Source: a virus
Virus record (IMG/VR): IMGVR_UViG_3300046674_000314
Location: 9,181-73,180 of that record
DNA: 64,000 nt
Reading direction: 5' to 3' (one strand)
Under the pieces are notes generated by a model. That model had not been told where the DNA came from and did no database searches. It was given only the letters and a program-made list of their open reading frames with translations. The translations under genes and the position numbers were made by a program. Positions 1 through 62,106 of this stretch are shown piece by piece. How positions within the stretch are numbered: position 1 is the stretch's first letter; every line of letters begins with the position of its first letter.

Positions 1-1
1 G

Positions 2-148
2 AAATGGCAGGTTCTTATTCGAAGCGATGGCGCATCGAAATATTTGGGCTTGTTTCCGACTGAGATTGAAGCTGCGCGCGCATACGATGCGGCAAGTGTG
101 AAATTGCATGGTGAACACGGACGAACGAACTTCGCGCGGGTGAATTAA
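2..148 (+). CDS. C-terminal AP2 DNA-binding domain, probably of an HNH-AP2 endonuclease (5'-truncated by the window)
   Basis: Manual frame-2 translation [44 protein letters not shown] matches the AP2 pattern [13 protein letters not shown]...LHG. Confidence 0.8.
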
Positions 149-312
149 CCCGGTGACGCGCGCGAGGTCCTTTGCTGGTGGTGCTCGCGCCCGCACTTGG
201 TCGGGGCGCGCTGCTGCTCTCCTACGCGCTCCAATGCTTGATGTATCGGAACGCGTCAAGGGCGGCGAACCCTTGCGCGCGAAGGTGGCGGTAGTACGCG
301 AGGCGGGTCATG

Positions 313-570
313 TTAAGCGAACAGGTCGATTTGCGTCGACTCGATCACTTCTTCGACTTCCGCCTCTTCGACGTAGTTCGCAACGTAGATCGCTTCGGCT
401 TCGTCGCTCGCTGCCAGGGCTGCGTTGAAAACCGCCTTTGCTGCCAAGAATTCGTCGTCGCCGATTTCCAGCGCGCGGTATGCCGCGGTCACGGCGCGAA
501 ACTTTGCCGAAGCTGCGCGGAAAGTGTCGAGCGCTGCGTCGTATGCGATTTGGTTTGCGTTCATTTTCAT
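313..570 (-). CDS. small acidic Ala-rich phage hypothetical protein
   Basis: 85-aa ORF with GGAGA RBS; a TTGACT-type -35 lies upstream (~630-635). Confidence 0.65.
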   Translation of the reverse strand: MKMNANQIAYDAALDTFRAASAKFRAVTAAYRALEIGDDEFLAAKAVFNAALAASDEAEAIYVANYVEEAEVEEVIESTQIDLFA

Positions 571-651
571 CTCTCCGGTTCTGCGCTGCGGTCAGCGCGT
601 GAGACAAATACTCTCACGGAGAGATGGCACAGTCAATAACTATTTTCGCTG

Positions 652-939
652 TTAGTTCAGCATCGCGCCGGTTCGCGCGTCCCAATGCTGAATCTTGACG
701 ACGTGATTGCAATCGTCACCTGTGCAAATGCCGGGAATGCTCTGAATCCGCTTCGACGCATAGCGCTCGTTCGCCTCGGAAATCTTCGCGCGCTGGCGCT
801 CTTCGTCGAGATGCCGGCATGAGCGCATGCCATCGGACCAGATGACGCCATCGGGACACTTTTCATCGGGCGGGCTGTAAATGACGGCGTGCGCGTTGAG
901 CGAAGCTGCGGCGAGAACTGCGGCGATTATCGTTTTCAT
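652..939 (-). CDS. putative secreted protein
   Basis: Signal-peptide-like start MKTIIAAVLAAASLNAHA; four Cys. Confidence 0.6.
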   Translation of the reverse strand: MKTIIAAVLAAASLNAHAVIYSPPDEKCPDGVIWSDGMRSCRHLDEERQRAKISEANERYASKRIQSIPGICTGDDCNHVVKIQHWDARTGAMLN

Positions 940-1038
940 GGTCTCTCTCGTGATGCCCTGGCGGGCGTGAGATTCGATTCTAGCGCGCAAACGGCCCGCC
1001 ATCCGGTCGGATGACGAGCGCATGACGCAGAGTATCGG

Positions 1039-1305
1039 TTAGAGGTCGCGAGCGTCTAGGCGCTCGTGCTCTGCGCATATTGCGGCGGTTTCTTCGAGGC
1101 GCATCGCCTTCCAGCGTTCGAGCGAGTCAATCACGTCTTGAACGTCGCGCTCGATGCCCTTGTGACCGCGACCGCCGGCGACGAGCAGCTTTTTCGTCGC
1201 GTGTTGCAGGCACGGATCGGTCACAGCGAACAGGTCGAGCACGCGATAGACGTCGATCGACTCGAACGGGCACGGCTTGAAGTAGTGGTTATGCGGCTTG
1301 CTCAT
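1039..1305 (-). CDS. conserved phage protein (HYFK...IDVYRVL..F.VTDPC.QHA.KKLL.AG.RG family)
   Basis: Recognisable widespread phage motif; ATGA-type overlap with the upstream gene. Confidence 0.7.
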   Translation of the reverse strand: MSKPHNHYFKPCPFESIDVYRVLDLFAVTDPCLQHATKKLLVAGGRGHKGIERDVQDVIDSLERWKAMRLEETAAICAEHERLDARDL

Positions 1306-2381
1306 TTGCGCTCCTTCACTGCCTGCTCGATGGCGCTCATCGCCGCGTTATAGAACGTCGCACCCGGAATCCGCGAGCATTCTGCGTGAACCTGTTGCGC
1401 GATTTCCTTTGCTCGCTCATCCGTCAGCGCACGCGGCTCGGCACGCTCAGGCGTCTCCTTGTTCGCGGCTAGGATTGCGCGGGCGAATTCGAGAATCGCG
1501 AAAGGTGCCGCTTGTTCGTCGAAACCTGTCTCACGCAACCATATGTCCCGAATCTGCTCATCCGTCAGCGCCGCATCCTTCCCGGCGTCCGCACGCTCCT
1601 GACTCGCGCCTGCTGCAATAAACGCTTCGTTTGCTGCTCTGGTCATTTTCTCTGCGACCCATTCGATAAAATCGACGGGAAGAGGCACCCCATCAGTTTC
1701 GCAAAGCATTACGACCTGATCGTAAGTCCACGCCCCCGCTGTGTCGGCGTCCGCACGCTCACTCGCGCCTGCTGCTGTGCTAGGGGCGGCCGGTAGCGGC
1801 ATCCAGTGCGTGATGTGCGATGCGTCTCCGACTCGGCCCATCATGTTTTCGAAGTAACCGCCATGATCGCGCCATTGACAGAAATCGTGATCGGATACGT
1901 CCGCCTCGAATTGACGCCCTTCGTCCGATTCGCCATATTGAACAGCGTTCACCCACCCCAAGAACATGCGCCCATCTTTCGGCGCTGTTTCAATTGGCTG
2001 CCACGCCACCGCTGTTTCGGCGTCCGCACGCTCAGGCGTAGGGGCGGCGGATTGGCTGTACTCGCATCGGCAACCGGCGCAAATGTCGGCGGGATTGCAA
2101 GCGCTTTCCGGCTCCGGCTGCGCCTCACGCGGTGCGCACTCGGCTTGCGGGGTGGTGAGTGGCGTCGTGTAATCGCCTCCGCTTTTAAGCCGATCAAGCA
2201 GAATGTCGATCGGTTGCGCCTCACCCTTGCCACCATCGGCTAGAAGGGCGCGGGCTTCCTCGTCTCGCGCGCGGATCAAGTCGTTTGCGGCTTCATACAC
2301 GTAATCCTTGAGGTCATCTTGACCTTCTTTGATCGTGAAGCCACGCTGCATGAAAATTGTGCGTATTTGATCTTTTGTCAT
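1302..2381 (-). CDS. repeat-linked modular phage protein with a DUF551-like module
   Basis: WQPIETAPKDG...ITHWMPLPAAP module between linkers PQAECAPREAQP, PTPERAD, ERADADTAG and ERADAGKDAA. Confidence 0.8.
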   Translation of the reverse strand: MTKDQIRTIFMQRGFTIKEGQDDLKDYVYEAANDLIRARDEEARALLADGGKGEAQPIDILLDRLKSGGDYTTPLTTPQAECAPREAQPEPESACNPADICAGCRCEYSQSAAPTPERADAETAVAWQPIETAPKDGRMFLGWVNAVQYGESDEGRQFEADVSDHDFCQWRDHGGYFENMMGRVGDASHITHWMPLPAAPSTAAGASERADADTAGAWTYDQVVMLCETDGVPLPVDFIEWVAEKMTRAANEAFIAAGASQERADAGKDAALTDEQIRDIWLRETGFDEQAAPFAILEFARAILAANKETPERAEPRALTDERAKEIAQQVHAECSRIPGATFYNAAMSAIEQAVKERK

Positions 2382-2938
2382 TTCTTCTCCTTAGCGGCCA
2401 AGGATTGCGCGGCAAAGGGTCATTAAGTCTTTGCAATCGATTCTGAATTCGCCGTCAACCCAATACCCGCCTGATATTTCAATCTCGTGCTCGATCCGCG
2501 CATCCGTCAGCGCCGCATCCTTTTCGGCGTCCGCACGCTCTTCCGATTTCATCCCGTCTTGTTGCAAGCGGCGCAGATGATCGTCAAGTCCTTTCTGCTT
2601 CAGTGCGTCGCGCTCACTCGCCCCCGCTGTGTCGGCGTCCGCATGCTCAGGCGTAGGGGCGGCGCTTTTAAGACAAGCAAAGCATCCGTTCCCACCGCAA
2701 TGAGCGCACGGGGTATCAAAAGTGCCGTCATAGTTGAGCGTTGTTCTCGGCCCCACCGGCTGCGCACGCTCAGGCGTAGGGGATGCGAGACTTTCAATCA
2801 AGTCTGCAAGTTCGGCGCAATCTTTACCGGTGAAAAACGGCTTGCCTTTGTCGAGATATTCGTGAGCGCGTCGAAGATCACGGAGCCATTGGTCTACCGG
2901 CTGCGCCTCACGCGGTGCGCACTCGGCTTGCGGGGTGG
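1455..2938. repeat. dispersed in-frame linker repeats (core gtccgcacgctc, encoding ERAD) shared with 63219-63796
   Basis: 41-bp unit at 2115-2155, 2898-2938 and 63756-63796; 27-bp unit at 2022-2048, 2637-2663 and 63636-63662; further units at ~1559-1598, 2501-2540, ~63357-63386 and ~1733, 2622, 63536. Confidence 0.9.
2115..2359. repeat. 245-bp direct repeat, copy 1 (copy 2 at 63756-64000)
   Basis: Identical at offset 61641 except one A/G difference (2232 vs 63873). Confidence 0.95.
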
Positions 2939-3059
2939 CGTCCTGCCATCCACGATAGAACGATTCTTCTCGTGCGTATGCAGAGCAGGCGCTGTTGTGG
3001 CAAGTACGCGAATATTCAATGTCAGTCAGGCCGCAGTGAGGACACGTTTCAATGGTCAT
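2391..3059 (-). CDS. repeat-linked modular phage protein with Cys-rich modules
   Basis: CPHC...CHNSAC and CAHCGGNGCFAC modules between the same linkers as 1302-2381. Confidence 0.8.
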   Translation of the reverse strand: MTIETCPHCGLTDIEYSRTCHNSACSAYAREESFYRGWQDATPQAECAPREAQPVDQWLRDLRRAHEYLDKGKPFFTGKDCAELADLIESLASPTPERAQPVGPRTTLNYDGTFDTPCAHCGGNGCFACLKSAAPTPEHADADTAGASERDALKQKGLDDHLRRLQQDGMKSEERADAEKDAALTDARIEHEIEISGGYWVDGEFRIDCKDLMTLCRAILGR

Positions 3060-3083
3060 TTCTTCTAACACTCCTTTGGTTAG

Positions 3084-4001
3084 TCATGCGAACAACTCTG
3101 GCTGACGGTCGAGAAACCTCTTATCCTCTGTGGTCAGGCGCTTGCCTAGCTCGCTGTATCCCCAAGCGTTATAAGCCCAGCGCGCATAAGTATTATCTCG
3201 CAAACGATCGATTTCGAAACCTTGATCTTGTATGCGTTTTTCGACCGCTTGGGACATTAGCGGCGCGAGATTGTCGTAATGCTGGCCCGCAACTTTCGCG
3301 TTCGGAGACTGGGAGGAAAACGCCAGAGTCTTACCGTCCATGAATATGTTCCCGTGCGCACCGATCTGAACCCACGACGAGGAGTCGACGGAATACCATG
3401 GGTACCGCTCCATGAGTGGGGTGCTGGTAAGCCCGAAGCCATGTACCTTGATCTTTGGACGGCCAGCCCCATCGCAAAGGTACTTGCCCCAAATTCTGTC
3501 CAGCCAATGAAATAGTTGTGGAGTACTAATAGGCACCATACCGCCGATGGTAATGTATTCATAGTTCGCCATGTAATACTCTAGGTACCGCTCGTCCTCG
3601 CCATAGTGAAAGCATGGGAGCGGGCGAACGCCAAGCTGTTCCATAGCGAGTTGATTTTGATAGGTCTTCAATGGGTCACCAATACCGTCAAGTACGGATG
3701 CCATCATATCGTTATTTTCGTATCGGATCAGGTCCGAATTATGGTGTATCCATTGGCAGTACGCCGGAAGGTTGACGTCCACCCCCAATGAGAAAGCAGA
3801 GAAGGCGCCCGAGTCGAGGAACACCTTGCGACCGCTTTCTCGTATGCGGTCTCGAAACGCATCTTTGTGAATGTAGTGGTACGATTCGAGATAGTTATCG
3901 ACCGAATCAAGCGCCATCTGTTCATGATTATTGAGCTTGTCATATGCGGTCGACCCCTTATAGAAGTTCGCAGTGAAAATACCGGCGATGTAGAGATTCA
4001 T
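3084..4001 (-). CDS. dpdA: DpdA, TGT-fold DNA 7-deazaguanine transglycosylase
   Basis: FLDSGAFSA, IGGMV, VHGFG and SVDSSSW motifs; adjacent to folE/queD/queC/queE. Confidence 0.85.
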   Translation of the reverse strand: MNLYIAGIFTANFYKGSTAYDKLNNHEQMALDSVDNYLESYHYIHKDAFRDRIRESGRKVFLDSGAFSAFSLGVDVNLPAYCQWIHHNSDLIRYENNDMMASVLDGIGDPLKTYQNQLAMEQLGVRPLPCFHYGEDERYLEYYMANYEYITIGGMVPISTPQLFHWLDRIWGKYLCDGAGRPKIKVHGFGLTSTPLMERYPWYSVDSSSWVQIGAHGNIFMDGKTLAFSSQSPNAKVAGQHYDNLAPLMSQAVEKRIQDQGFEIDRLRDNTYARWAYNAWGYSELGKRLTTEDKRFLDRQPELFA

Positions 4002-4222
4002 TTGACCTCACTCCGCACGCCATCGGGGCAATCATAAACATAGACGTATTCTGCAAGCTTACCATGACGGCGCCCGGTTGGTTGCTGAGTGATTAGCTCG
4101 CAACCATGTGATTCTAAGAACTTTTCGTGCTTAATGGAATCGTAGGTTGCAATTCCCAGCCCGGCAGCTACCACAATCAAAATTGCGATCAAAGTCACGC
4201 TCAACCAGGTGTCTTCTTTCAT
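3998..4222 (-). CDS. small membrane-anchored hypothetical protein
   Basis: N-terminal hydrophobic helix; translationally coupled to dpdA. Confidence 0.65.
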   Translation of the reverse strand: MKEDTWLSVTLIAILIVVAAGLGIATYDSIKHEKFLESHGCELITQQPTGRRHGKLAEYVYVYDCPDGVRSEVK

Positions 4223-4228
4223 GGCGGA

Positions 4229-4882
4229 TTACTCGTTGGTTAAGGCCAGAAATTCAGCGCGGGCGGCTGGTTCAGTTTTCATCACGCCGCGCAATGCGCA
4301 CGTCACAGTATCGGAGTTATGCTGGGCGACTCCACGCGACTCGACGCACATATGCTTTGCATTGATGTGGACACCAACCCCCTTCGGGTTCAAATGCTCC
4401 ATCAACGCGTCAGCAATTTGCGTCGTCAATCGCTCTTGGACTTGGAGTCGTCGCGCGAAGGCGTCAGCAAGCCGGTCCAGCTTACTAAGACCAAGCACCC
4501 GACCATTCGGGATATAAGCGATGGTACAGCTTCCGATGATAGGAGCCAGATGGTGCTCGCAATGACTATAAATGCGAATATTCTTCCGCACGACCATTTC
4601 GTCATAGCCTTCGGCCCCATCGTCGAATACCTTCAGCAGCCCGCCAATGTCCACATGGTAGCCGCTGGTCCAATGTTCCCAAGCCTTTGCGACCCGCTTG
4701 GGCGTTTCGAGCAACCCACCGCGCTCGGGGTTCTCGCCGATCACAACGTCCAGCAGATTGCGCACGACTTGCTCTTTCAGGCTTCGCGCGCTCGGGACTC
4801 GCCCAACCGCAGCGGTCATGCTATTGGCGCGGTTGAACAGAAGCGGGGAACCTTCATCTTCAGGGAAAAGATCGTTTTTCAT
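4229..4882 (-). CDS. folE: GTP cyclohydrolase I
   Basis: GLLETPKRVAK, SHCEHHL, GLSKL.R, RRLQVQERLT and HMCVESRG motifs. Confidence 0.97.
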   Translation of the reverse strand: MKNDLFPEDEGSPLLFNRANSMTAAVGRVPSARSLKEQVVRNLLDVVIGENPERGGLLETPKRVAKAWEHWTSGYHVDIGGLLKVFDDGAEGYDEMVVRKNIRIYSHCEHHLAPIIGSCTIAYIPNGRVLGLSKLDRLADAFARRLQVQERLTTQIADALMEHLNPKGVGVHINAKHMCVESRGVAQHNSDTVTCALRGVMKTEPAARAEFLALTNE

Positions 4883-5377
4883 TTAGTCTTGGAATGCGCT
4901 AGGAAAAGCCAGTTTTTCGGGAATGTAGATTGCGCTGTTGCCCGCATGCTCGGAGCACTCGCAAGATACGACTTTCAGCCCATAGGCTGAAACAGCGCCG
5001 CTGTAATCCGCATTAATGACGGAGTTGGCAATCTCCCACGCTTCTTCTGCAAAGCGCTCGACACCGACACCCTTATGAAAAATGCGGACTTCAGCAACCC
5101 CGGCGCGTTCCATTGCCATGAACAGGCCCATATCAGGATCGTCATAGGCGACGGCAATCTTGTGGTCAAAAGTCGCTTTGAGTGCGTCTTTCAGCGCTTT
5201 AAGCCCGCCAAAGTCCATCACCCAGCCACGTTCGTCCAGCCTATCAGCGCTGAACACGAACTTGAACCCGAGCGCGTAGCCATGCACCAACTGGCAATGG
5301 GAGTGGTTGGCTCGCCATTGCCGGAAAGCGCACGAAAGCCCTTGTTCCTGCCCGTAGGATTTCGTTGAGAGATACAT
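4883..5377 (-). CDS. queD: 6-carboxy-5,6,7,8-tetrahydropterin synthase
   Basis: HC..VHGY, WVMDFGGLK and FDHK motifs; cluster context. Confidence 0.9.
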   Translation of the reverse strand: MYLSTKSYGQEQGLSCAFRQWRANHSHCQLVHGYALGFKFVFSADRLDERGWVMDFGGLKALKDALKATFDHKIAVAYDDPDMGLFMAMERAGVAEVRIFHKGVGVERFAEEAWEIANSVINADYSGAVSAYGLKVVSCECSEHAGNSAIYIPEKLAFPSAFQD

Positions 5378-6051
5378 TAGACCGTTTCTCCTGCCTTATA
5401 CTGCTCCCAGCCATTCGCGCGCAGCTTACATGCCGGGCACTCGCCGCAACCCGCACCCCATTCGTGCGAGAGTTGCCGGTCGCCTTCGTAGCAGGTATGC
5501 GACATGGTCAACACTTCGTCAAGCACCCCCGCTTCCTTAGCCGCTGCGAACGTTTCGGCCTTGTTCAGATACATTAGCGGAGTGGCGAAATGAATGTTGG
5601 TCTGGTAACCGATATTCAGCGCATTTTCCAGAGCAACGATGAACTGTTGACGGCAATCCGGATAGCCCGAATAATCGGTCTGGCACATTCCACCGATGAC
5701 AGTATCCGCGCCTTTTTCTTGCGCGTATGCGTGCGCGAAGGTCAGCAGCAGCGCATTACGATTCGGCACGAAACTGTTGGGAACGCCGGTCATACGCGAA
5801 TGCGGGTCAGCAACCGCGTCCGTTTCATTCGTCAACGCCGACGAGACCATTGAACCGAGCGCGCGCAAATTCAGAATTTCATACGGAACGTTGAGCTTCG
5901 CTGCGATCTTCTTGGCTTGTAGCAGTTCGACCAGATGGCGTTGCCCGTAATCGAACCCGAGAGCCAGCACTTCGTAGCCATTTGCAAGAGCCATGCCGAG
6001 AATGGTGGTCGAGTCTTGCCCACCCGAGAACAGAACGATAGCTTTGGACAT
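5377..6051 (-). CDS. queC: 7-cyano-7-deazaguanine (preQ0) synthase
   Basis: FSGGQDS, DYGQRH, VPNRN, YPDCR and C.....CGECPAC motifs; no N-terminal GAT domain. Confidence 0.97.
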   Translation of the reverse strand: MSKAIVLFSGGQDSTTILGMALANGYEVLALGFDYGQRHLVELLQAKKIAAKLNVPYEILNLRALGSMVSSALTNETDAVADPHSRMTGVPNSFVPNRNALLLTFAHAYAQEKGADTVIGGMCQTDYSGYPDCRQQFIVALENALNIGYQTNIHFATPLMYLNKAETFAAAKEAGVLDEVLTMSHTCYEGDRQLSHEWGAGCGECPACKLRANGWEQYKAGETV

Positions 6052-6060
6052 TTGATGTTC

Positions 6061-6141
6061 CTAGTTGAGATAGAAGTACAGACCGGTCAGCAGAGCGGCC
6101 CAACCGAGCAACGAGTATGCAGCGACTTGGACGGGATTCAT
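6061..6141 (-). CDS. 26-aa hydrophobic micropeptide (MNPVQVAAYSLLGWAALLTGLYFYLN)
   Basis: Manual translation; fills the queE-queC gap; not in the ORF track. Confidence 0.45.
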   Translation of the reverse strand: MNPVQVAAYSLLGWAALLTGLYFYLN

Positions 6142-6149
6142 TTTTGTAT

Positions 6150-6911
6150 TTACTCCATTCCGATCAGCTTATGCGTCTGCAAGCAAAGTATATATCCAAA
6201 TTGCATTGTAGACTTAATGGCACGGCGTAGATTCATCTCGTTCTTTTGTTCATCTGCTTCGTAGAGATTCGTCGTGTACTGCACCGTGTTCTTTTCTTCG
6301 GCGGGCTGCACATAGATCGGCCCGCGATATCCCTCATGCGGCCTTGCGGGGGCGGCTGGCAAGCCCAATACGGAGCTTGGCAAGCCATCTTTTTCCAGCA
6401 CCGAGCCAGCATTGACCACATATTTATACGCGATAATCAGGGGCCAAAGGTCTTCATGTACCTTGCCAGCTTTGGGGCTGACAACTACGCCAAATTGCGG
6501 GTGCTTTTTCGGGATCGGTTCGCGGCCCCACGGCGAGAGCGTGCCATTCGTCTCGACCTGCACTTCAAACCGGTTGACGCGCAAGCCTTTGATTAGCGGG
6601 ATGATGTTCTGCCGGAAAGGTTCGCCGCCCGTGATGACTACCAGCGGATTAGCCACGGACTCGTAACTAGCACCCATTGTAGCGATTGCTCGCGTAACGA
6701 TGCTTCCGACTGATTCGTAGGCGCTTCCAGCTGTGTACTCAGTATCGCAACCAGGACACTGTAGATTACAACCAGCGAGCCGAATAAAAACAGCTGGGCG
6801 TCCGACATGTGGCCCTTCCCCTTGGATGGTATAGAAGATCGAATGGATCGACAGGTCGCCATTCTCCGAACGCTCGGACTTAACCGGCGCTTGCTTATTG
6901 ATTGGGATCAT
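6150..6911 (-). CDS. queE: 7-carboxy-7-deazaguanine synthase (radical SAM)
   Basis: IFYTIQGEG, FIRLAGCNLQCPGCDT, ITGGEP, ETNG and QTHK motifs. Confidence 0.97.
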   Translation of the reverse strand: MIPINKQAPVKSERSENGDLSIHSIFYTIQGEGPHVGRPAVFIRLAGCNLQCPGCDTEYTAGSAYESVGSIVTRAIATMGASYESVANPLVVITGGEPFRQNIIPLIKGLRVNRFEVQVETNGTLSPWGREPIPKKHPQFGVVVSPKAGKVHEDLWPLIIAYKYVVNAGSVLEKDGLPSSVLGLPAAPARPHEGYRGPIYVQPAEEKNTVQYTTNLYEADEQKNEMNLRRAIKSTMQFGYILCLQTHKLIGME

Positions 6912-7138
6912 GAAACTAGACTACTCCGACTAAGGGATCGGCACTATTGCCGGTGTCGAATGATAGTGGAACATTCCACTGCGCAGCGCTCTACCGTTTC
7001 TGCCCATAAGAGCCAACCGCCCGGGTGCGTAATTGGTTGTCATGGCGTCAAAGCGCTGCGCGGTGGAGGCACGGATTGCGGAACTATGGACCGTGCCAAT
7101 ACCAATGTGGCTAAATTCCTACTCTGCGCGAGATTCGA

Positions 7139-7834
7139 TTACTCGGTTGCTGCGGCGCCGGCTGCATCGTCGGCTTCCGTACCCGGCAGTTCTTGCTGGG
7201 GTGCAGCAGCTTGGGCGGCTTGGGCTGCGGCTGCGGCCTTCGCTTCGTCGGCGACTTTCTTTTCCGCTTCCTTGTTCGCCTTGTCCGCGTCCTTCTTGGC
7301 CTTCAGTTCGGCTTTTTCCGCCTTCTTCGTTTCGCGGATCGAGTCGAGTCGAGCACGGCGAGCTTCGCGCGTTTCCGACAGACCGTAATACTTGCGCCAG
7401 CGGCCGTACTGCGTATGGACCGTGCCGGTTTGCACTGCGCCGTTCAGCGCTGCCGTCAGCACTGCGCGCTCGACCGGACCACCAGCAGCTTGCGACAGCT
7501 TGTCGGCTTCGTCCCACACTTGCTTGGTCACGCCAGCTTGCGGGCGCGCGATGCCATTGCGTTCGTCCTTGGCGACCGGTGCGGGCTTGGCTTTCGCCGC
7601 TTCCTTTTCCGCCTTCTTCGCTGCCTTGTCGGCTTCGGCTTGCTTCTTCGCTTCGGCCTTCACGCGCTTGGCTTCTTCGTTCGCTGCCTTCTTCGCCGCT
7701 TTGTCGGCGTCGGCTTGCGCCTTCTTGTCGGCCTTGGCTTGTTCGGCTTCGGTCGGCTGCGGCGCCGGATTGACTTGCGTGTTGTCGGTTTGCGGAGCTT
7801 GTTCCTGATCCGGCGTCGTTTGATCTTCGTTCAT
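7139..7834 (-). CDS. Lys/Ala-rich histone-like protein with a VW..AD...G...GT..TQ..RW domain (paralog 1)
   Basis: KA-rich low-complexity flanks around GVTKQVWDEAD...TGTVHTQYGRWRK. Confidence 0.8.
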   Translation of the reverse strand: MNEDQTTPDQEQAPQTDNTQVNPAPQPTEAEQAKADKKAQADADKAAKKAANEEAKRVKAEAKKQAEADKAAKKAEKEAAKAKPAPVAKDERNGIARPQAGVTKQVWDEADKLSQAAGGPVERAVLTAALNGAVQTGTVHTQYGRWRKYYGLSETREARRARLDSIRETKKAEKAELKAKKDADKANKEAEKKVADEAKAAAAAQAAQAAAPQQELPGTEADDAAGAAATE

Positions 7835-7940
7835 GGTAATCCTTTGTGGTGAGAGCGATTCGGGCACCGGCGTTTTAGCTCTGGTGTGAATGAATCATAA
7901 TTGAGAACAGCGTCTAAATGCAAGACACTTTGATGTACCT

Positions 7941-8135
7941 CTACTTCTTTTCCGGCGCTTCCATTCCGAACTCGCGGGCCTCATTTCGAGCTAGGATAAA
8001 AGCATGCGCGGCGGTCCAGAGATAGCCAGCCCCTAACACATTAGGGCACGCACTGATCCGATAATACCCGTCGATCAGTTGGATATGCGGTTTGTTCCAT
8101 CGCGGCGCCCGCATGGTTTTGTTCGAAAAGCCCAT
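7941..8135 (-). CDS. hypothetical protein
   Basis: Short ORF in the operon, coupled to the upstream stop. Confidence 0.5.
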   Translation of the reverse strand: MGFSNKTMRAPRWNKPHIQLIDGYYRISACPNVLGAGYLWTAAHAFILARNEAREFGMEAPEKK

Positions 8136-8911
8136 CACACTCCCCGCTCTGCTTTCCATTTACCGAACTGCGTCGCCGCAGTACCCGGGTTGATGCCTTC
8201 AGATTCGCATTGCACAATGACGCCTTTGCGCACCAGCTTGATATAATCCGGGGTGACTTCTGCCGGACGATTTGCATAGATCGCGTCCGCAATATCCCAA
8301 ACCCGCTTGGTCGCGCCGGGCTTGCGCGGGGCGCTGGGTTCCTTCGGCTCCTTCGGCTCTTTCGCCTTCGTGGGCGCCCCGCCTTCGACCTTTGCAACCC
8401 CTTGCTGCTGATTGGCTGCCTCGACCCCGCTGATAATAGCCTGATGCGTCGCACGGCTTACCGGCTCGTCCGGTTCCAGTTCTTCGGTCGGAGCGACATA
8501 AGGCTCGTCATCAAGAGGCTCGTACCCGCGATCTTCTGCTGGCAAACCAGCCAACGGGTTCCCCGGTGAGTCGTCATAAGCTTCTGCTGGGTACAAGGGA
8601 CCCGGGATCGCTTGCGCATCGTCAAGCTTCACCAACTCTTCTTCGCTGGTCGGGTACTCGGACCAGCCAGCCGAATAGGCGCGCAGTTGCTCAATAGCCA
8701 CAGGATAATCCGGCGCTTCTTGCCCGCTCATATTCGTGTACAGCCGCGCCATTTCTTCCTTGGTGAACACGGTCCAGAGCTTCCCATCCTGACTATCTAC
8801 AATCTCTGTGGATACATCGGGGAACAGGTGCTTTTCGATCAGCATCATGTGCGACATTTTGCTCGCCGCTGCTACCATCTTCAGGTTATCTCGGTCAATC
8901 AGGATAAGCAT
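8135..8911 (-). CDS. hypothetical protein with C-terminal VWDIAD...GINPGTAATQ..KW domain (paralog 2)
   Basis: 258-aa ORF with RBS and its own promoter; motif shared with three other genes. Confidence 0.8.
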   Translation of the reverse strand: MLILIDRDNLKMVAAASKMSHMMLIEKHLFPDVSTEIVDSQDGKLWTVFTKEEMARLYTNMSGQEAPDYPVAIEQLRAYSAGWSEYPTSEEELVKLDDAQAIPGPLYPAEAYDDSPGNPLAGLPAEDRGYEPLDDEPYVAPTEELEPDEPVSRATHQAIISGVEAANQQQGVAKVEGGAPTKAKEPKEPKEPSAPRKPGATKRVWDIADAIYANRPAEVTPDYIKLVRKGVIVQCESEGINPGTAATQFGKWKAERGV

Positions 8912-8940
8912 TTGGGTTTCTCCCGTTCGTCAATGATTCT

Positions 8941-8969
8941 ATTATAGCAGACCAAGTGCGGCGCGCACT
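8941..8969 (-). promoter_or_regulatory. phage promoter AGTGCG-N17-TATAAT
   Basis: Member of a nine-copy motif family. Confidence 0.7.
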
Positions 8970-8970
8970 A

Positions 8971-9231
8971 TCAGAATGGTATGCCAGCGCTAAAGTCTGT
9001 GCATCCAATCGTGATAACCAGAATGGGTGGGCGCATGTTATACTTCTCGCAAATTTCAAACCCTTCCCGGTTATTCCAGTGCTCGCAATTGTAGCAGCAC
9101 TCCCATGTGAAAGTGTCAACCAGCGCTTTCTGCGATTTGCGCATTTGTTCAGAGCGCATTCTCTCCCGTTCTTCGAGAGTGGTACCAGCTTTGTAGACCA
9201 GCGGGGCGGTCGGGGGCAATGGATTAGTCAT
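8971..9231 (-). CDS. small Cys-rich protein
   Basis: CCYNCEHW...C...C; follows the helicase. Confidence 0.65.
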   Translation of the reverse strand: MTNPLPPTAPLVYKAGTTLEERERMRSEQMRKSQKALVDTFTWECCYNCEHWNNREGFEICEKYNMRPPILVITIGCTDFSAGIPF

Positions 9232-9233
9232 AG

Positions 9234-10898
9234 TCAGAATATATGTGAGTGGATTTCAGGCAAGGGCTTGTTCACGATTACCGCAATAGCCCGCGGTTGT
9301 TTCAGGTTGTTAATGATCCCATACGCGACTTCGGTACTCTCTGGCGGAACCGCTCCATCGGCGCGAGCTTTCCACCATTGCTTCGCCAACCGGCCCGGAT
9401 AGCCGCCATGCTCCAAGCAAACCCATTCCCGAAACGTTTTCGAACCAGAGTGATAGGTCACGCAAATGGAGTCAGGCTTTCCGGTCTTATGCCACATTTG
9501 ATACGCAACGCGATCCACCGGGAATTCCTTCACTTCAGGCAATTCCAGCACCGGCGCTTCTCGCACTAGCTTCTGAGTGCTCGACGTCTCGTCGATTTTG
9601 AGGTATCGCGGGAATTCGAATCCGCAGTTCCAGCAGCTTCGGGCAGACGCGTGGTTATAACAGCCACACGAGTCACATATACGCACCGGAGCGTCGCCTT
9701 CACGTTTTCGTTCCTTCGGTTCAGGTACGCGCGGGTCGTTAATAGGCCCAAGGCGTGTAACGTTTTTAGCAAAATCGGCAACCATACAATTCCGCTTGTG
9801 ACTTGCCGCAATTGCATTGAGTCGGCCATCTCTTGTGGATAGATCAAAACCCGGCTCGTAGTGAGGTCTGGTACCGCGACCGAGCATTTGGACCCAAAGA
9901 CCGGGACTGAGCGTGTGTCGCAGCATTCCAATGAAATCAATGTCTGTCTTATCAAAGCCGGTCGTGAGAATTCCATTGTTCACCATCCATTCGAATTCGT
10001 TCTCTTTGTAGGCTTCGATGTTGGCGTCGCGCTCAGCCGAAGTCATGCCTACAGACGCAACCCATGTTGCCGATTGCCCGTAATACTTCAGAATGTCCAC
10101 AAGGTGCTTGCAATGCTCTAGACCGCTGGCAAATACCAGCTTTGATCGGCGGTCCTTGCCGAGTTCCAACATTTCGATGACGGCTGCTTCATTCTTCTTT
10201 TGATTGTCGACCTCTGCCATAAGACTTTTCGCTTCGTACTCGCCACCCTGAATTTTGACGTTCGACAGATCATACTCGACCTTCGTCGGACGCGGGATCG
10301 GCGGCACAAGGTACCCCTCATGGAAGAACCAATTGAAGGCGTCGAGACCAGTACAATCGACCGCGACGTCACTAAAGATAGCACCATCACCATTTGTCAG
10401 CTTCCCTTGTTTCATCCGATAGCCGGTGGCCGTCAGCCCGATCACCTTACAGTTCGGATTGGCTTTCTTCAGCCCGTTGAAAAACTTCTGGTACATCGTC
10501 TCGTCGCTCGGGCTGATTTCATGCGCTTCGTCGACAATGACAAAGTCAATGAATCCGAACAACTCGGGAATCTTATAGACCGATCCGATTGACCCGAAGG
10601 TGATAGGATAATGGTGTTGCTTCTTTCCAAGCCCATCGCAAAAGATACCAACCGGCGCATCGCTCCAAGCCATTTTCAGCTTGTCGTAGTTTTGCTTGAC
10701 CAATTCCTTGGTCTTGGTCAACATCATGATGCGGGTCTGCGGATACCAGCCCAGCGCTTTAACGCAGATGCCCGCAACAATGATAGACTTCCCGGTGCCA
10801 GTGGGGTACAGGAGCAGCGGGTTGCCCTTATTCGTTTGGAAATAGTCGAACGTGGCTTGGATGCCGAAATCCTGATAGTCGCGCGGCTTCAACAGCAT
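9234..10898 (-). CDS. SF2 DNA helicase (RadD/YejH-like) with Zn ribbon
   Basis: PTGTGKS, DEAH, TAT, LTTGFD, QMLGRGTR and CDSC...CWNC motifs. Confidence 0.93.
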   Translation of the reverse strand: MLLKPRDYQDFGIQATFDYFQTNKGNPLLLYPTGTGKSIIVAGICVKALGWYPQTRIMMLTKTKELVKQNYDKLKMAWSDAPVGIFCDGLGKKQHHYPITFGSIGSVYKIPELFGFIDFVIVDEAHEISPSDETMYQKFFNGLKKANPNCKVIGLTATGYRMKQGKLTNGDGAIFSDVAVDCTGLDAFNWFFHEGYLVPPIPRPTKVEYDLSNVKIQGGEYEAKSLMAEVDNQKKNEAAVIEMLELGKDRRSKLVFASGLEHCKHLVDILKYYGQSATWVASVGMTSAERDANIEAYKENEFEWMVNNGILTTGFDKTDIDFIGMLRHTLSPGLWVQMLGRGTRPHYEPGFDLSTRDGRLNAIAASHKRNCMVADFAKNVTRLGPINDPRVPEPKERKREGDAPVRICDSCGCYNHASARSCWNCGFEFPRYLKIDETSSTQKLVREAPVLELPEVKEFPVDRVAYQMWHKTGKPDSICVTYHSGSKTFREWVCLEHGGYPGRLAKQWWKARADGAVPPESTEVAYGIINNLKQPRAIAVIVNKPLPEIHSHIF

Positions 10899-10900
10899 TT

Positions 10901-11116
10901 TTAGTTATCCTTTTCACCTTGCAAGATTTCGCGTTCGACTTGCTTATCACGCTTCAGGAGCGGCGCCCATGCAAGAAAGTATTCCCCGACCCGACCGCGC
11001 CAATTACCGGTCACGCACATTCCGCCGATGGTCAGCAATTGCAGCTTGGTATCCGGCGTATACGGTGGCTTGGTATAGCACCATTGGGGCTTATCTGTGG
11101 CTACGTATTCAGGCAT
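10901..11116 (-). CDS. small phage protein (DUF551-like)
   Basis: KLQLLTIGG..VTG.W....FLAWAPL pattern. Confidence 0.6.
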   Translation of the reverse strand: MPEYVATDKPQWCYTKPPYTPDTKLQLLTIGGMCVTGNWRGRVGEYFLAWAPLLKRDKQVEREILQGEKDN

Positions 11117-11183
11117 TTACTTCTCCCAATGCTCGCGCGAAATGCGGTCTTGGAGTCGTTGGATTTCCAGAGCCATTTGAACC

Positions 11184-12119
11184 TCACAATGATGGGTGGT
11201 GCTGCCAATCGGGGCACCCTGATAGCTGCCGCGTTTTATCTAGCATAGCATTATGCGTGCTGCACCACCAGGTTCCATCTGTCTGCGGACTGGCGGCTGC
11301 GCAGGTTCGACAATTCATATCCGGCGCGTCGCCAAAGTGACATACCCGGCGCTCGTCGCAGTACTTGCACTTCCAGAACGATTCATTCTGACTCAGCTTG
11401 GGTGGCGCCTCGACCGCAAAAATGATCTTGTGGGCGCGCTCTCGAAAGAACAGCGCGCAATCCGGATCATACTCGACAATCTCGAAATAGAGTTCGTCGT
11501 TATCCTTGCAGCATGCAGCATACAGCCCATGCGTCAGCTTGTAATACTCCATGTACTGCTGCATCTGCACATAATGTTCTAGCTTGGCTTTCTTGACGCC
11601 TTCGGGCGGAATGACCACAATGCCTTCGCGGTCCACTTCCCCAGCCAGCTTTTTAAATGACTTCAAGTTGTGCGTCTTGAATTCAGCGAGCACCGGTACA
11701 TCGGGCATTTCCGGGATGCCGAGAATTACACCGTCAATGGCTGATCCGTAATGACCGCCGTAATACGAGACTCGGAATTGCCGACCTTCGGCTTCTTCTT
11801 GCCAGACCTGACAATCAATAGTCCGGAACATAGCCACAAAGCGTGCTTCCTCCAAGTGGCCCCGATTGAACAACCGCAGCATGCGGCCCGAGAATTTGGC
11901 GGGTTTAGTCCAGCGCCATTTGTACCAGAGTTCCCGCGCGCATTCCCGACCCGATAGGGAAATCCCCATGTGGCTACGGAATCGGTCATGCTGCGAATCA
12001 TCATAGGCGTCACCCACGTCCATGATGTGCTCTTTCAAGAACCCTTTGAAGCGGCGCCCCTGATCGCGGTAGATCGCTGCGTCAATTGCTTCCTTGGTCT
12101 GAGTGGCGAGACGGATCAC
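11184..12119 (-). CDS. Cas4-like PD-(D/E)XK exonuclease
   Basis: C.RELWY, GH.EE, IDG, EFKT, QMQ.YM and CKYC...C Fe-S-type motifs. Confidence 0.88.
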   Translation of the reverse strand: MIRLATQTKEAIDAAIYRDQGRRFKGFLKEHIMDVGDAYDDSQHDRFRSHMGISLSGRECARELWYKWRWTKPAKFSGRMLRLFNRGHLEEARFVAMFRTIDCQVWQEEAEGRQFRVSYYGGHYGSAIDGVILGIPEMPDVPVLAEFKTHNLKSFKKLAGEVDREGIVVIPPEGVKKAKLEHYVQMQQYMEYYKLTHGLYAACCKDNDELYFEIVEYDPDCALFFRERAHKIIFAVEAPPKLSQNESFWKCKYCDERRVCHFGDAPDMNCRTCAAASPQTDGTWWCSTHNAMLDKTRQLSGCPDWQHHPSL

Positions 12120-12370
12120 TTTCTCTCCCGAGCTTTCATCATTGTGTCAGCTTGGCGGTATGCGGCATGCGCAAGCCTATCCAGCGCCGAACCATTGACC
12201 AGTTCTTGACCGGTAATATGCTGCATCAGTTCGGGGTTTGCCATCATTCCGGTCAATGCAGCAATAGCGAAACGATCGCGCAGTTCTTGTTCTTCGAGTC
12301 GACGTTGTGCGAAAATGCGTTCTTGCTCTCGCGCTTGGTCTCTTACCTGCGCATGTGTATACTGATACAT
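12116..12370 (-). CDS. conserved phage protein (LRDRFAIAAL...AY..AD.MM.AR family)
   Basis: Recognisable widespread phage motif. Confidence 0.7.
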   Translation of the reverse strand: MYQYTHAQVRDQAREQERIFAQRRLEEQELRDRFAIAALTGMMANPELMQHITGQELVNGSALDRLAHAAYRQADTMMKARERK

Positions 12371-13158: not shown

Positions 13159-13995
13159 TTACGATTGGTTCTGAATCTTGTCGATCAGGTATGACAAGTC
13201 TGGGCGCTCCCACGGTTCGAGCATTCCCGATCTGTCTTTAGCATCATACGATGCGTCGGGCTGGGTTTGCAAGAAACGATAGAGCTTATTTGTCGTTGCA
13301 TCAGTCGCTACCCCGATGCGAAAAGTTTCGTCAAGCCAATAGGGCGACTGCGGCCCCAGTTGCTTTCCGGGAAAATCAGGGGCGCCGACAATCGCACCTG
13401 ATACACCATCTTGCTTGCTGCCGAGCTTGGCCGTGATGCAAACATGCTTTCCCGCGAGATTGCGAAACTTGCGGAAATACTCCGCAATAATGTCCGCCAC
13501 TTCGCCGTAGGCTTGCCGACCATCGGCCTTTGCTGCCTTAGCTGCATTCAACATCACTTCGGCCGTCTCGCTCGACGAATCCCAAGCCACCGACTTGTAA
13601 TATCCCTGATTGGCGGGCGCCGCAAGCCAATCATAGGCCGCTTTCAGCTGTAGACCATTGCGAACTACGATCACCGGGCTATTGGCTGCACCTTCAGCAC
13701 GAGCACGCGCACCGGCGTCGTCCATTCCCATACCAAGGAAAATCTTAGTCAGATTCCCCACGCTGAGAGACAACAGGCCGCTCTCCGACGAGATAAAAAC
13801 TATCGGCTGCGGCATCGTAGCGCACAGGACTGTCTTTCCAACCCCTGCCGGGCCGTACACTAGCGTCTTGACCCCGTTGCTGGTCGCTTGCTCTTTGACC
13901 GTTGACCAAACGATTGGCGTAGGCGTTGTGGAATTCGGGGCCGAAGTTGCTGGTGATTCCGGCGCCGCAACCCCCGGCGGTAATGGTGCGTTCAT
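13159..13995 (-). CDS. AAA_24 / Sak4-like ATPase
   Basis: LVYGPAGVGKT Walker A, ESGLLS, WDS, AKDRSG.L motifs. Confidence 0.88.
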   Translation of the reverse strand: MNAPLPPGVAAPESPATSAPNSTTPTPIVWSTVKEQATSNGVKTLVYGPAGVGKTVLCATMPQPIVFISSESGLLSLSVGNLTKIFLGMGMDDAGARARAEGAANSPVIVVRNGLQLKAAYDWLAAPANQGYYKSVAWDSSSETAEVMLNAAKAAKADGRQAYGEVADIIAEYFRKFRNLAGKHVCITAKLGSKQDGVSGAIVGAPDFPGKQLGPQSPYWLDETFRIGVATDATTNKLYRFLQTQPDASYDAKDRSGMLEPWERPDLSYLIDKIQNQS

Positions 13996-59610: not shown

Positions 59611-61599
59611 CTAGGTGAGGGTGACGCCCAATTGGGCTAGTTGCTCTGTTGCTACTGCGATATACTTCTCATAATCCACGTCGTCAGGAAATTCCGAGTA
59701 TCGCATAATCGGACGCGCCCCTTCGGTAGTCGGCACAAGATGCCCCTTGGAAACCGTAACAATTTCCCCGGCTTCATCCTTTGGATAGTACCAGCGCGCG
59801 ACCTTACCCACATACTCCGTTCTTTCCGGATATACCTTCGCGCAGCCGCCACGGACATTACGCACCGAAACGAACTTGTTGATATCCCGGCAAGCGAGTA
59901 TAGTGTCTTGAATCGGTGTACCTTTGCTGACGAAAGCGGATACTGCGTCGCTACAGATTTCCATCTGCGGGTTCTTTTTAATGGTCGTTTCGCCGTAAAC
60001 ACCCTTTGACTTGACTTTTCCATCTGCTTTCACCGCGATGTAATTATTGACGTCCCGGCTGAAGGTAGCCACATAGTCAGTAGCTTCCATTTCCAGCCCG
60101 GTCTCCGCTTCCCATTGCTTGACGACCGCTTTTAGTTCCGCTTCCTGATCCTTGCGGCACTTGATAACAACACCGTCCGTATTTGCATTGGTGATTTCGA
60201 ACCCGGCAATATGTGCGCGTTCGATCATCATCAACAGCGCAAGCTGCCCGCTGATAGTGGTCTGCATGCCGAGTTCCGGGCAATAGAGTACCGACCAAGG
60301 GTCCATTGTCTTACCGAACGAGCCGTTGACGACAATCTTCAGCCCGTTTGCTTTAACCATTTCCTTCGCCGCCTTCGCCGCCAACCGCATATCGACGATG
60401 CCCCCATAGAGCGGGACGAACATAGAGCCAATGGCGGGCGGATACTTGCCAGACCCGAGAATCAGCTTAGGGTAATACGAAGCAACGTCATGGTCGCGCA
60501 GCATGAATTCTGTTCCCGCATAGTGGGCAATCGTTTCTTCTTGCGAGTGTAACCCGCCAATCCCCATCTTGTACTTCATGTTGCCGATAGGAATAACCAG
60601 ATTCGCCAGCCCTTCCGGCATCTTGACATAACCGGTTTCTTCAATCTCGAACCAAGCATTTTCGATCGTTTGCTTGACCCATTGAAGGTCGAGCGTCAGA
60701 AAGCGTACCCAATGCGGCATATCAAACTGAAACTTGTGCCCCGGTCGAATCTGCGGCGGCTCTGCATAGCGCCCGGTCCGCTTATGGAACTCAGCCCGGA
60801 AAATAGCCTCTGCCATCTGCGCATCGCTTTTGCTGCGCAAGTCGATCCCGTAAAGCTTGCCGAACTCTTCGCGCAACTCGATGTTTTCCAAATGTGCCAG
60901 ATAGAGCAACTGAGTATTCCGCAAGTCATTGAACATATACCACATCGTGATAATCTGCTGCGGCTCGCTCAGGAATGTACCCGGCTTAAACGGAAGGTCC
61001 ATCATCATCGGTGACCCGATTCGGCCCGCCATCGTTTTAAGCGAAGGCGCAAGCGGAGTCAATTCGATCAAGTCGATATGGTCGATGTAGATTTTCTTCG
61101 CGCCCATCGCCCGGCAAACTTGCCAGCCCCGTTCCCCGAATTCAATGATCCGCCGCGTAGCCATATACATGTGGCTACAATCCGTCCCCGGCTTTACAGC
61201 GATGTTTGCAATGTGACGGTCATAATGCTCACCGTTAAAGTCGATAAGCACGAAATTACGAAGCACCCAATCGAGTTTGCGTTTGTCGAAGTCCGGCGTT
61301 GCGTCAGTCGATTTGAATACGAGACTTTTCCCGCTAACGATTGATTGAAAACCGATTGAGAAAAAATTGGGGTATGACTCAATATCCCATACGAGACGTT
61401 CGCCGCGTAAGCTTGCTTGGACCAACTCCTCGTCACTGAATAGATCGGGTTGAAAGGAACCCGCCTCGTCAAGGTGCGGTAAATAGTCGTCGCGCAGCCA
61501 GACGGGGTCCGGCGGCGTTCGCTGAACCTTGTCCTTGGCCTTGGAAATTTTAGGGGGTTTGACATCGTTCCAAAATAAACCTGAAATATCAAATCGCAT
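59611..61599 (-). CDS. family-B DNA polymerase with 3'-5' exonuclease
   Basis: Exo DIESY and FNG..YD; polymerase DVASYYP, K...NG.FGK and NTDG motifs. Confidence 0.92.
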   Translation of the reverse strand: MRFDISGLFWNDVKPPKISKAKDKVQRTPPDPVWLRDDYLPHLDEAGSFQPDLFSDEELVQASLRGERLVWDIESYPNFFSIGFQSIVSGKSLVFKSTDATPDFDKRKLDWVLRNFVLIDFNGEHYDRHIANIAVKPGTDCSHMYMATRRIIEFGERGWQVCRAMGAKKIYIDHIDLIELTPLAPSLKTMAGRIGSPMMMDLPFKPGTFLSEPQQIITMWYMFNDLRNTQLLYLAHLENIELREEFGKLYGIDLRSKSDAQMAEAIFRAEFHKRTGRYAEPPQIRPGHKFQFDMPHWVRFLTLDLQWVKQTIENAWFEIEETGYVKMPEGLANLVIPIGNMKYKMGIGGLHSQEETIAHYAGTEFMLRDHDVASYYPKLILGSGKYPPAIGSMFVPLYGGIVDMRLAAKAAKEMVKANGLKIVVNGSFGKTMDPWSVLYCPELGMQTTISGQLALLMMIERAHIAGFEITNANTDGVVIKCRKDQEAELKAVVKQWEAETGLEMEATDYVATFSRDVNNYIAVKADGKVKSKGVYGETTIKKNPQMEICSDAVSAFVSKGTPIQDTILACRDINKFVSVRNVRGGCAKVYPERTEYVGKVARWYYPKDEAGEIVTVSKGHLVPTTEGARPIMRYSEFPDDVDYEKYIAVATEQLAQLGVTLT

Positions 61600-62029: not shown

Positions 62030-62106
62030 TTTCTCAATATCGCCCAAGCGAGGTATGTTAGAAGTATAGCGAGTTGGACGCCAAAAATCCAGAGCAAGAT
62101 TGTCAT
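62026..62106 (-). CDS. 26-aa hydrophobic micropeptide (MTILLWIFGVQLAILLTYLAWAILRK)
   Basis: Manual translation; ATGA overlaps with both neighbours. Confidence 0.5.
   Translation of the reverse strand: MTILLWIFGVQLAILLTYLAWAILRK

Follow-up and report, generated by a model that had tools for sequence, protein, structure and literature searches.

Cassette genes of a phage gene pool carry an ordered series of in-frame DNA linkers at which modules have probably been exchanged

How can genes of largely different content share short, nearly identical pieces of DNA that stand in one order and keep the reading frame? This question is raised by three open reading frames (ORFs), here called cassette genes A, B and C, in a 64,000-nucleotide (nt) stretch of viral DNA, the window, which comprises the last 64,000 nt of the 73,180-nt IMG/VR virus record IMGVR_UViG_3300046674_000314; window and record end at the same base. 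An initial annotation, made from the letters alone, described the shared pieces as linkers between variable modules and proposed that they are recombination hot spots. We compared A, B and C with each other and with related genes from other records. Judging from these comparisons, recombination at short homologies in the linkers has probably shuffled modules across a phage gene pool, over evolutionary time and not by programmed switching.

Linkers and modules of the cassette genes

All three annotated ORFs were present on the minus strand. Gene A (1302-2381) encodes 359 amino acids (aa) with an N-terminal helical module, a cysteine module, a DUF551 module and three further helical modules. Gene B (2391-3071), located 9 nt upstream of A and directly downstream of dpdA, encodes 226 aa from a GTG codon or 222 aa from the ATG at 3059, and consists of a zinc-ribbon-like N-terminal module and four more. 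Gene C (63210-64000) is truncated at its 5' end by the end of the record and lies directly upstream of the sliding-clamp gene.

Pairwise blastn showed that the long linker is identical in A and B (42/42 nt) and in B and C (41/41 nt), and that the remaining linkers of the three genes are 25-47 nt long and 91-100% identical; the stretches between linkers had no DNA similarity. The linker tracts span 15-51 nt and lie in one codon phase and in one order, and every stretch common to the three genes preserves the reading frame. All of them are on the minus strand. The G linker, delimited by shared 15-mers, occupies 2217-2231 in A and 63858-63882 in C, and the Q linker, which is the 41-nt linker of the initial annotation, occupies 2113-2152 in A, 2896-2935 in B and 63754-63793 in C. 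Linkers of the T/E family, all containing a 12-nt core, are found at 2015-2049, 1731-1768 and 1558-1608 in A, at 2763-2782, 2618-2664 and 2501-2540 in B, and at 63636-63664, 63532-63568 and 63356-63393 in C. The N linker, normally the C-terminal end of these proteins, lies at 1455-1487 in A and 63215-63243 in C, and a remnant of 12 nt only is present in B (2401-2412). The G (2210-2251) and Q (2114-2155) linkers also have a common 14-nt sub-motif with one mismatch.

The 12-nt core occurred in seven exact copies and one copy with a single mismatch, on a single strand and all within A, B and C, against a chance expectation of 0.70 matches (standard deviation 0.78, largest 3, 100 shuffles). No further copy was found on either strand anywhere else in the 73,180-nt record. 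Repeated in-frame motifs in genes adjoining replication genes could also be protein-binding DNA sites, that is, iterons or operators within coding sequence; the origin of phage lambda, for example, lies in gene O. We regard this explanation as very improbable. The linkers are irregularly spaced (84-615 nt), and several different ones stand in a fixed order that is common to unrelated backbones. No initiator domain was detected in A, B, C or the 64 family proteins described below, and the linker DNA formed no hairpins beyond those of shuffled sequences (z -2.0 to +1.5), that is, no unusual secondary structure. The arrangement expected of origin iterons, at least three closely and regularly spaced repeats within an initiator gene, was not found.

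The N-terminal module and the G and Q linkers of A make up a 245-nt repeat (2115-2359, minus strand), which pairwise blastn found identical at 244 of 245 nt to 63756-64000 in C. Consistent with the initial annotation, which had noted two ORFs with a shared N-terminus, A and C part company exactly at the 3' end of the long linker. The record stops inside the second copy of the repeat, and ORF A as printed may join genes of two phages inside it. At its other end, A continues one module beyond the usual C-terminal linker, and its stop codon is overlapped by an 88-aa gene on the minus strand (1039-1305). This small gene aligns with six PHROG families that are 180-250 positions long, in each case only over the last 70-80 positions at the C-terminal end; by these alignments, its module is free-standing here and fused in longer proteins elsewhere. 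The free-standing gene and the extension of A suggest that fusion and fission also take place at these joints.

A search of phage databases with the linkers, proposed in the initial annotation, had a divided outcome: no other viral contig contained the exact 41-mer, and an exact 19-mer from the core linker was found in 61 viral contigs, which form the main sample. In 59 of these, the ORF around the match has the same linker series (L019 and L054 are without it). The stored loci and the record contained 76 cassette genes, reduced to 64 by merging near-identical ones. Linker and module words were taken computationally from the stored sequences, and linkers were defined by 15-mers common to at least 10 of the 64 genes. 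The shared 15-mers made sharp peaks (317 segments, median 29 nt), which fell into six linker families: S, G, Q, T/E, a short E prefix, and N, with S as the start motif. Hybrid T/Q linkers were present in several genes, and the linker types are interrelated by microhomology. A second linker set accompanies the main one in this pool, and some proteins have linkers of both (L007, L018, L026, L037, L040, L041, L053, L057 and L063).

None of the 278 shared 15-mers was seen in a second codon phase, so that conservation at the DNA level with the frame kept, as claimed for A, B and C, extends to the family. The order S-G-Q-T/E-N was likewise maintained, with 12 backward steps among 253 compared with 92.7 ± 4.8 after shuffling (minimum 78 in 1000). 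Nearly all backward steps led from T/E to Q (11), and the commonest step of all was from T/E to T/E (63), which indicates that the number of modules varies where linkers have a common core.

Between the linkers we counted 267 pieces of at least 15 aa (median 37 aa, range 15-189 aa), belonging to 184 module families, of which 131 are singletons. The proteins have 62-565 aa and up to about ten slots. Module families seen at least three times had about as many different neighbours as copies, and some occupy different slots; tabulating the slots thus supports the combinatorial content that the initial annotation had envisaged. The same motif order in most genes could alternatively reflect one ancestral multi-domain gene whose homologues diverged so fast that only short motifs stayed conserved. 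Such an origin is hardly credible, as one slot holds pieces of 15-189 aa with different predicted folds, and the same module family appears in different slots and at other positions in other proteins. Moreover, linkers with near-identical codons (0.027 versus 0.625 synonymous differences per codon, as explained below) directly adjoin stretches without similarity.

The module identities given by the initial annotation were partly confirmed. DUF551 (PF04448) was detected in A at residues 137-200 (window 1782-1973, minus strand) with 25.6 bits against a cut-off of 22, and was not matched in B or C, where Pfam gave nothing above threshold. The cysteine clusters had sub-threshold, zinc-ribbon-like Pfam matches only. 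The AlphaFold model of A had a mean predicted local distance difference test score (pLDDT) of 63.6 and a predicted template modelling score of 0.35. It contains helical units of fair confidence at residues 1-67, 216-264, 274-307 and 321-358, and pLDDT falls below 50 at 74-122, 140-165, 199-214 and 311-317, covering the Q, T and E linkers. The N linker is modelled within a helix.

Exchange of modules at the linkers

If modules are exchanged at the linkers, homology between two genes should end there. Segments common to two genes (at least 75 nt long and at least 90% identical) had 269 of their 329 internal ends within 5 nt of a linker, while random positions in the same genes were near a linker at a proportion of 0.318 (largest 0.392 of 200). 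Some locus pairs have one common flank; in L012 and L060, for example, the gene is the same from the Q linker onward and different before it. A 34-kb contig gave a further case. It comes from X4, one of four sequencing runs (X1-X4) that contain window DNA and are labelled rhizosphere or root metagenomes. In this contig dpdA-queC differs from the window at 9 positions in 2935 nt (99.7% identical). Next to it, where the window has the 681 nt of B, the contig has 1344 nt of unlike sequence, and then come the initial 166 nt of an A/C-type gene. A near-identical backbone therefore carries a different cassette, and with the one-flank pairs this means that fixed cassette content in related phages, named by the initial annotation as evidence to the contrary, was not found.

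Synonymous differences were counted in identical 7-residue words with unlike sequence on both sides and no overlap with the 19-mer used as bait. Linker words had 0.027 synonymous differences per codon (7185 pairs), whereas 0.625 would be expected from the codon usage of the family. Three genes found by protein profile and not by DNA gave 0.06-0.13 differences per codon in linker words. The near-invariant codons imply that conservation of the linkers extends from the protein to the DNA; saturated synonymous sites, the other outcome that the initial annotation had set against its proposal, were not observed.

These data can also be explained if the linkers are kept for a role of the peptide, as a flexible spacer, binding motif or polyprotein cleavage site. 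DNA identity would then reflect recent descent, and modules would be joined by illegitimate recombination with selection for the reading frame; intragenic phage mosaicism is usually ascribed to rare illegitimate recombination. We consider this explanation unlikely, while giving it a real chance. It agrees with the equal synonymous divergence of linkers and shared modules (see below) and with the composition of the linkers, which are rich in Ala, Pro, Glu, Gln, Arg and Asp and predicted to be disordered. Polyvalent phage proteins, moreover, are processed into units, according to the accessible part of one report (PMC5512222). However, breakpoints pile up at the linkers, and no peptidase domain was found in the 64 proteins. 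Distinct linkers keep their order and only those sharing the core vary in number, as homology-guided exchange predicts. In addition, the same module occurs with very different linkers in other lineages, which argues that a module does not need its linker peptide.

According to the reading of short-homology recombination, each gene would encode a beads-on-a-string protein, in which small autonomous modules alternate with a fixed series of spacer peptides, and the spacers would double as short tracts of identical DNA. When two cassette genes meet in one cell, after co-infection or when a phage infects a lysogen, a crossover by homologous recombination or single-strand annealing would take place inside a common linker. 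As the codon phase of each linker is constant, every crossover would yield an in-frame chimera. Register and order would be kept because the G, Q and N linkers are mutually different and homologous pairing keeps register, and the number of modules would change by unequal exchange because the T/E linkers have one common core. Repeated over evolutionary time, this process could build a combinatorial library that crosses unrelated phage backbones.

The lengths of the shared tracts are compatible with such a process. Isolated exact matches have a median of 23 nt and reach about 50 nt; 52% are at least 23 nt, 24% at least 31 nt, and 93% shorter than 40 nt. Minimal efficient pairing requires 23-27 nt for Red-beta and 31-34 nt for RecA in the portion of PMC3945230 available, and the match lengths straddle these values, which we count in favour of short-homology recombination. 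The same source, to the same extent, reports that the Erf recombinase equalled Red-beta in efficiency on diverged substrates and that within-gene exchanges of about 100 bp are frequent.

The acting enzyme may be a phage annealing protein of the Erf or Sak4 type, or host RecA. The initial annotation had suggested Sak4/SSB/Cas4-like machinery, a link that stays conjectural. An Erf-like annealing protein (record 1147-1884) and an SSB (record 655-1131) are encoded outside the window, on the strand of A and in the same strand block, 8.6 kb downstream. The phage backbone contains a Sak4-like AAA_24 gene (window 13228-13875, 63.4 bits); a PDDEXK_1 nuclease was looked for and not found, and a canonical SSB is absent from the backbone and from two complete relatives. 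The modules might be independent host-interaction domains, as in lambda Ea22-like early proteins.

Short conserved repeats around variable in-frame cassettes also resemble programmed systems, namely shufflon-type inversion, diversity-generating retroelements, or gene conversion from silent cassettes. We consider programmed variation scarcely worth entertaining. The 278 linker 15-mers occurred 7315 times in sense orientation inside cassette genes, 0 times antisense, and 187 times outside them in 673,083 nt of loci, and no inverted core was present in the record. Inverted repeats as in shufflons or other invertase systems were absent; an adjacent recombinase was not systematically sought. The record contains no reverse transcriptase (RVT_1), and the variation consists of whole-module replacement and not, as in diversity-generating retroelements, of point substitution. 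A silent cassette array of the pilE/pilS or vlsE type was not found, the core being confined to three full ORFs and most loci having one or two genes within their stored flanks. Without inverted copies, reverse transcriptase or silent cassettes, programmed systems are excluded as far as sequence tells. Identical flanks also went with identical genes: in all eight locus pairs with both flanks at least 97% identical the cassette genes were identical (8/8), so there is no sign of fast or programmed switching.

This last result at the same time weighs against exchange at the linkers as the explanation, and so do several others. Words inside shared modules have 0.031 synonymous differences per codon and so differ as little as linker words (0.027). 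Recent common descent would suffice to explain this, and selection on the linker DNA is therefore unsupported; by this measure the entire pool is either young or thoroughly mixed. The linkers thus qualify as the places where homology ends, as the hot-spot proposal held, and are conserved as DNA, but not more strongly than shared modules and with no special selection on their DNA. Exchange was not seen directly, as Logan contigs break at linkers and leave the modules unphased. The main sample was baited by an exact 19-mer, and 60 of its 61 contigs are numbered in one narrow record range, so it may represent one habitat or campaign. An Erf homologue was found in just 2 of 63 stored flanks, and an SSB also in 2 of 63, these flanks being short. 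On the side of function, Pfam named 1 of the 64 proteins above its cut-off, by DUF551, and PHROGs gave 22 families in one or two members each, nearly all unnamed and matched by single modules. The PHROG names "Mu Gam-like" and "host nuclease inhibitor" (2 members) concern about 60 residues of one N-terminal module and were not relied on. A fold search of the A model against the PDB gave 0 matches at E≤0.001.

Distribution of the linkers and comparison with known systems

The sources of the genes point to a limited group of hosts. In 596 Gb of species genomes, used as a control, the 19-mer occurred in 22 contigs. Twenty of these were chance matches in GC-rich DNA where the linker series is absent, and two had the series, from a Caballeronia telluris isolate and from a 3-kb contig of a metagenome-assembled genome. 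A word-indexed protein search with A gave 123 matches, with the main linkers in 69 of 120 among the matches listed. Proteins with the linker series came from four source collections, the named sources being Caballeronia telluris, C. turbans and Burkholderia vietnamiensis. A profile of the 64 family proteins, which in effect models the linkers, found genes in 3 of 69 species genomes of the genus Caballeronia. With protein C as query, 1 of 296 sampled genomes of the family matched and 5 more were unscored. Megablast of both regions against a phage collection gave no match, and tblastn of A against phages gave nothing beyond 32 matching residues in Burkholderia phage BcepF1. The polymerase encoded in the record and its counterpart in Burkholderia phage BcepGomr are 58% identical. 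The best reading is that A, B and C belong to a large pool of accessory early genes in phages and prophages of Burkholderiaceae (Caballeronia and relatives).

Linkers of other kinds were found outside this pool. Of the 51 protein matches that lack the main linkers, 20 contain exact 5-residue repeats of their own, spaced by at least 15 aa, compared with 2.8 expected from shuffled proteins (largest 7). One module of C (approximately residues 160-191) has counterparts that are 35-84% identical to it in three contigs of other metagenomes (L115:535-2064, L116:1378-2409 and L117:1465-2670). The proteins of these contigs join their modules by very different linkers, which are 22-36-nt direct DNA repeats (61-97% identical) and contain none of the main 15-mers. 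The C-terminal tail of the L117 protein is DUF551-like. When C was compared with a library of 1.84 billion representatives, it matched at least 150 proteins at E≤0.001 and 21 at ≤1e-10, typically by one module and at widely differing positions in the target. Modules therefore travel between linker sets, which fits linkers serving exchange within a pool better than a peptide required by the module. From these sequences, the beads-and-linkers design seems to be general, with lineage-specific "dialects".

A stronger version of this idea is that the linkers have evolved as joints dedicated to in-frame recombination, so that phages would have their own equivalent of exon shuffling. Every host-clade pool would have a private set, with which annealing recombinases reassort hundreds of host-interaction or counter-defence modules; the dialects would isolate the pools, and the scheme would be general for DUF551-associated early proteins. 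We regard this version as possible but doubtful.

By place and mosaic habit, the early genes of the lambda ea22 type are the nearest described genes that we can name by analogy. Mosaic early genes with interchangeable C-terminal domains are described, and DUF551 is called a "portable domain", in the available part of PMC10834534. Like the lambda Ea22 and P22 Ead types of the exo-xis region, the cassette genes are accessory mosaic early genes, and A has DUF551; judging from the few annotated loci, they may also resemble those types in lying near recombination or integration genes. Unlike them, they have no Ead_Ea22 signature (Pfam; A, B and C at E up to 1, the 64 proteins at E up to 0.01), and the text available for those types describes blocks, not ordered DNA-identical in-frame linkers.

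Motif-guided domain swapping is a second parallel. T-even tail fibres have "His boxes" as conserved motifs for the swapping of adhesin domains. In antireceptors of Streptococcus thermophilus phages, collagen-like repeats lie between domains (PMC5601072, as far as its accessible text goes). In these proteins the variable domains lie between short, conserved in-frame motifs, which are presumed to guide homologous exchange; the cassette genes likewise have in-frame DNA motifs at the borders of variable domains and homology breakpoints at the motifs. Tail fibres and antireceptors, however, are structural, determine host range and vary in just one or two regions, whereas the cassette genes are early and non-structural, with up to about ten slots, six linker families and 184 module families.

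Other modular systems differ in their joints. Polymorphic toxins (Rhs, CDI) and polyvalent proteins resemble the cassette proteins in their variable modules and in having many small conflict-related domains per polypeptide (PMC5512222, in the part seen). They have a conserved single junction, in contrast to the many internal junctions here, where the proteins have 62-565 aa and Pfam detected no toxin, immunity or peptidase domain in the 64 of them. Mycobacteriophage Lysin A proteins have many domain organisations made from a common domain set, but the consulted sections of PMC3314691 report no short conserved sequences between the shuffled domains, unlike the linkers here. Work on Rad52-like recombinases is similar in that short and even imperfect identity suffices for exchange; in the excerpt used, it concerns chance homologies between phages and defective prophages (PMC3945230), whereas the cassette genes hold a standing set of in-frame junctions. 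Our literature search, which did not extend to supplements, found no account of early phage genes with an ordered series of in-frame linkers that are identical as DNA. Mosaicism of ea22 genes and swapping guided by motifs have been described, as have polymorphic toxins and polyvalent proteins, and, measured against the parts of these sources at hand, the ordered linker series seems to be new.

The gene family seems to be organised so that ordinary short-homology recombination always yields in-frame, correctly ordered chimeras. If so, it would be a natural combinatorial scheme of protein assembly and a source of new multi-domain proteins, and it would account for the high variability of such early "dark matter" genes. 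The linkers could also serve as baits with which small phage modules are recovered by the hundred and listed.

Composition of the record and neighbouring genes

Cassette genes break and mis-join metagenome assemblies, and the 73-kb record is a probable example. It is best read as a composite of a phage of about 61.7 kb, with the gene order dpdA, B, C, clamp, and some 11-13 kb from a temperate phage, which the assembler would have attached through the 245-nt repeat. Complete relatives of 58.7 and 61.8 kb with terminal repeats are collinear with the 60-kb dpdA/DNA-polymerase backbone (window 3084-63110). One of them, G003 (61,820 nt with a terminal repeat of 114 nt), is collinear only with record 12264-72290 and has no match to record 1-12263 (up to window 3083) or to C. 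Temperate-type contigs have, beside their cassette genes, DNA that is 73-98% identical to the first 10.5 kb of the record. The first 11.3 kb have a tetranucleotide correlation with the backbone of 0.71, compared with 0.86 among backbone segments (minimum 0.79), and a higher GC content. The left part, with Erf and SSB, constitutes a second recombination system beside the Sak4-like gene of the backbone, and in run X4 the backbone had a depth of 36.6 and window 1-1200 none. Counted for a real mosaic, runs X1 and X2 contain both record parts at similar depth. Uncovered parts in runs X3 and X4 were not counted as absence, except where the 34-kb contig bridges them.

Assemblers might likewise have produced the cassette genes themselves, by joining reads of different genes at repeated linkers. 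Many contigs end in or beside cassette genes, this record ends in the 245-nt repeat and is probably composite, and linker depth in the four runs is 10-100 times that of flanking phage genes. We nevertheless consider such an artefact improbable. Eight clusters of identical genes with identical flanks come from different records. Three species genomes of a single genus, among them the named Caballeronia telluris isolate, have genes with the linker series in large contigs, and the proteins come from four source collections. Usual sequencing reads are longer than 40 nt, and 93% of the isolated exact matches are shorter than that. The shared linkers are real whether or not the record is composite: the junctions between B and dpdA (in two runs) and between A and its downstream DNA are bridged by contigs of other runs. 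Summed contig depth in linker-rich bins of 1200-3000 was 100-1100 in X1-X4 versus about 7 over dpdA (36.6 in X4), and on this evidence the linkers belong to many co-occurring genomes in root and rhizosphere communities. Joints, and the depth at them, with sides shorter than 30 nt probably belong to other genes of the community and were not taken as variants of this phage.

Because the record is probably composite, the occurrence of three ORFs in one phage and their neighbourhood to dpdA carry little meaning. The initial annotation had taken the position beside dpdA as a hint of a role in countering host defence, and this hint was not sustained. Ten relatives, G003 among them, have 0-3 unrelated small ORFs after dpdA and next the clamp and polymerase genes, with no cassette gene after dpdA in any of the ten, and cassette genes occur mostly in other phage types. 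Among the few annotated loci, the cassette gene lies two genes upstream of an integrase in the Caballeronia telluris prophage (L088) and beside a ParA-like gene in L012.

The immediate neighbours were assigned by family library matches: the dpdA-type transglycosylase upstream of B (3084-4001) and the DNA polymerase processivity factor, or clamp, downstream of C (62103-63110), both on the minus strand. The dpdA gene belongs to a 7-deazaguanine DNA-modification cluster (3084-6051, minus strand), which also has a 74-aa membrane-like ORF and further ORFs. Those resembling GTP cyclohydrolase I, QueD and QueC were named by reading their translations, and only dpdA was checked against a family; ORFs across the whole interval match G003 in tblastn. 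Between the clamp and DNA polymerase genes lies an HNH endonuclease gene with an AP2-like C-terminal part (61589-62047), which looks like a free-standing homing endonuclease insertion. The same gap in three relatives holds short unrelated ORFs only. A second AP2-like ORF fragment runs into the window at 2-148 on the plus strand.

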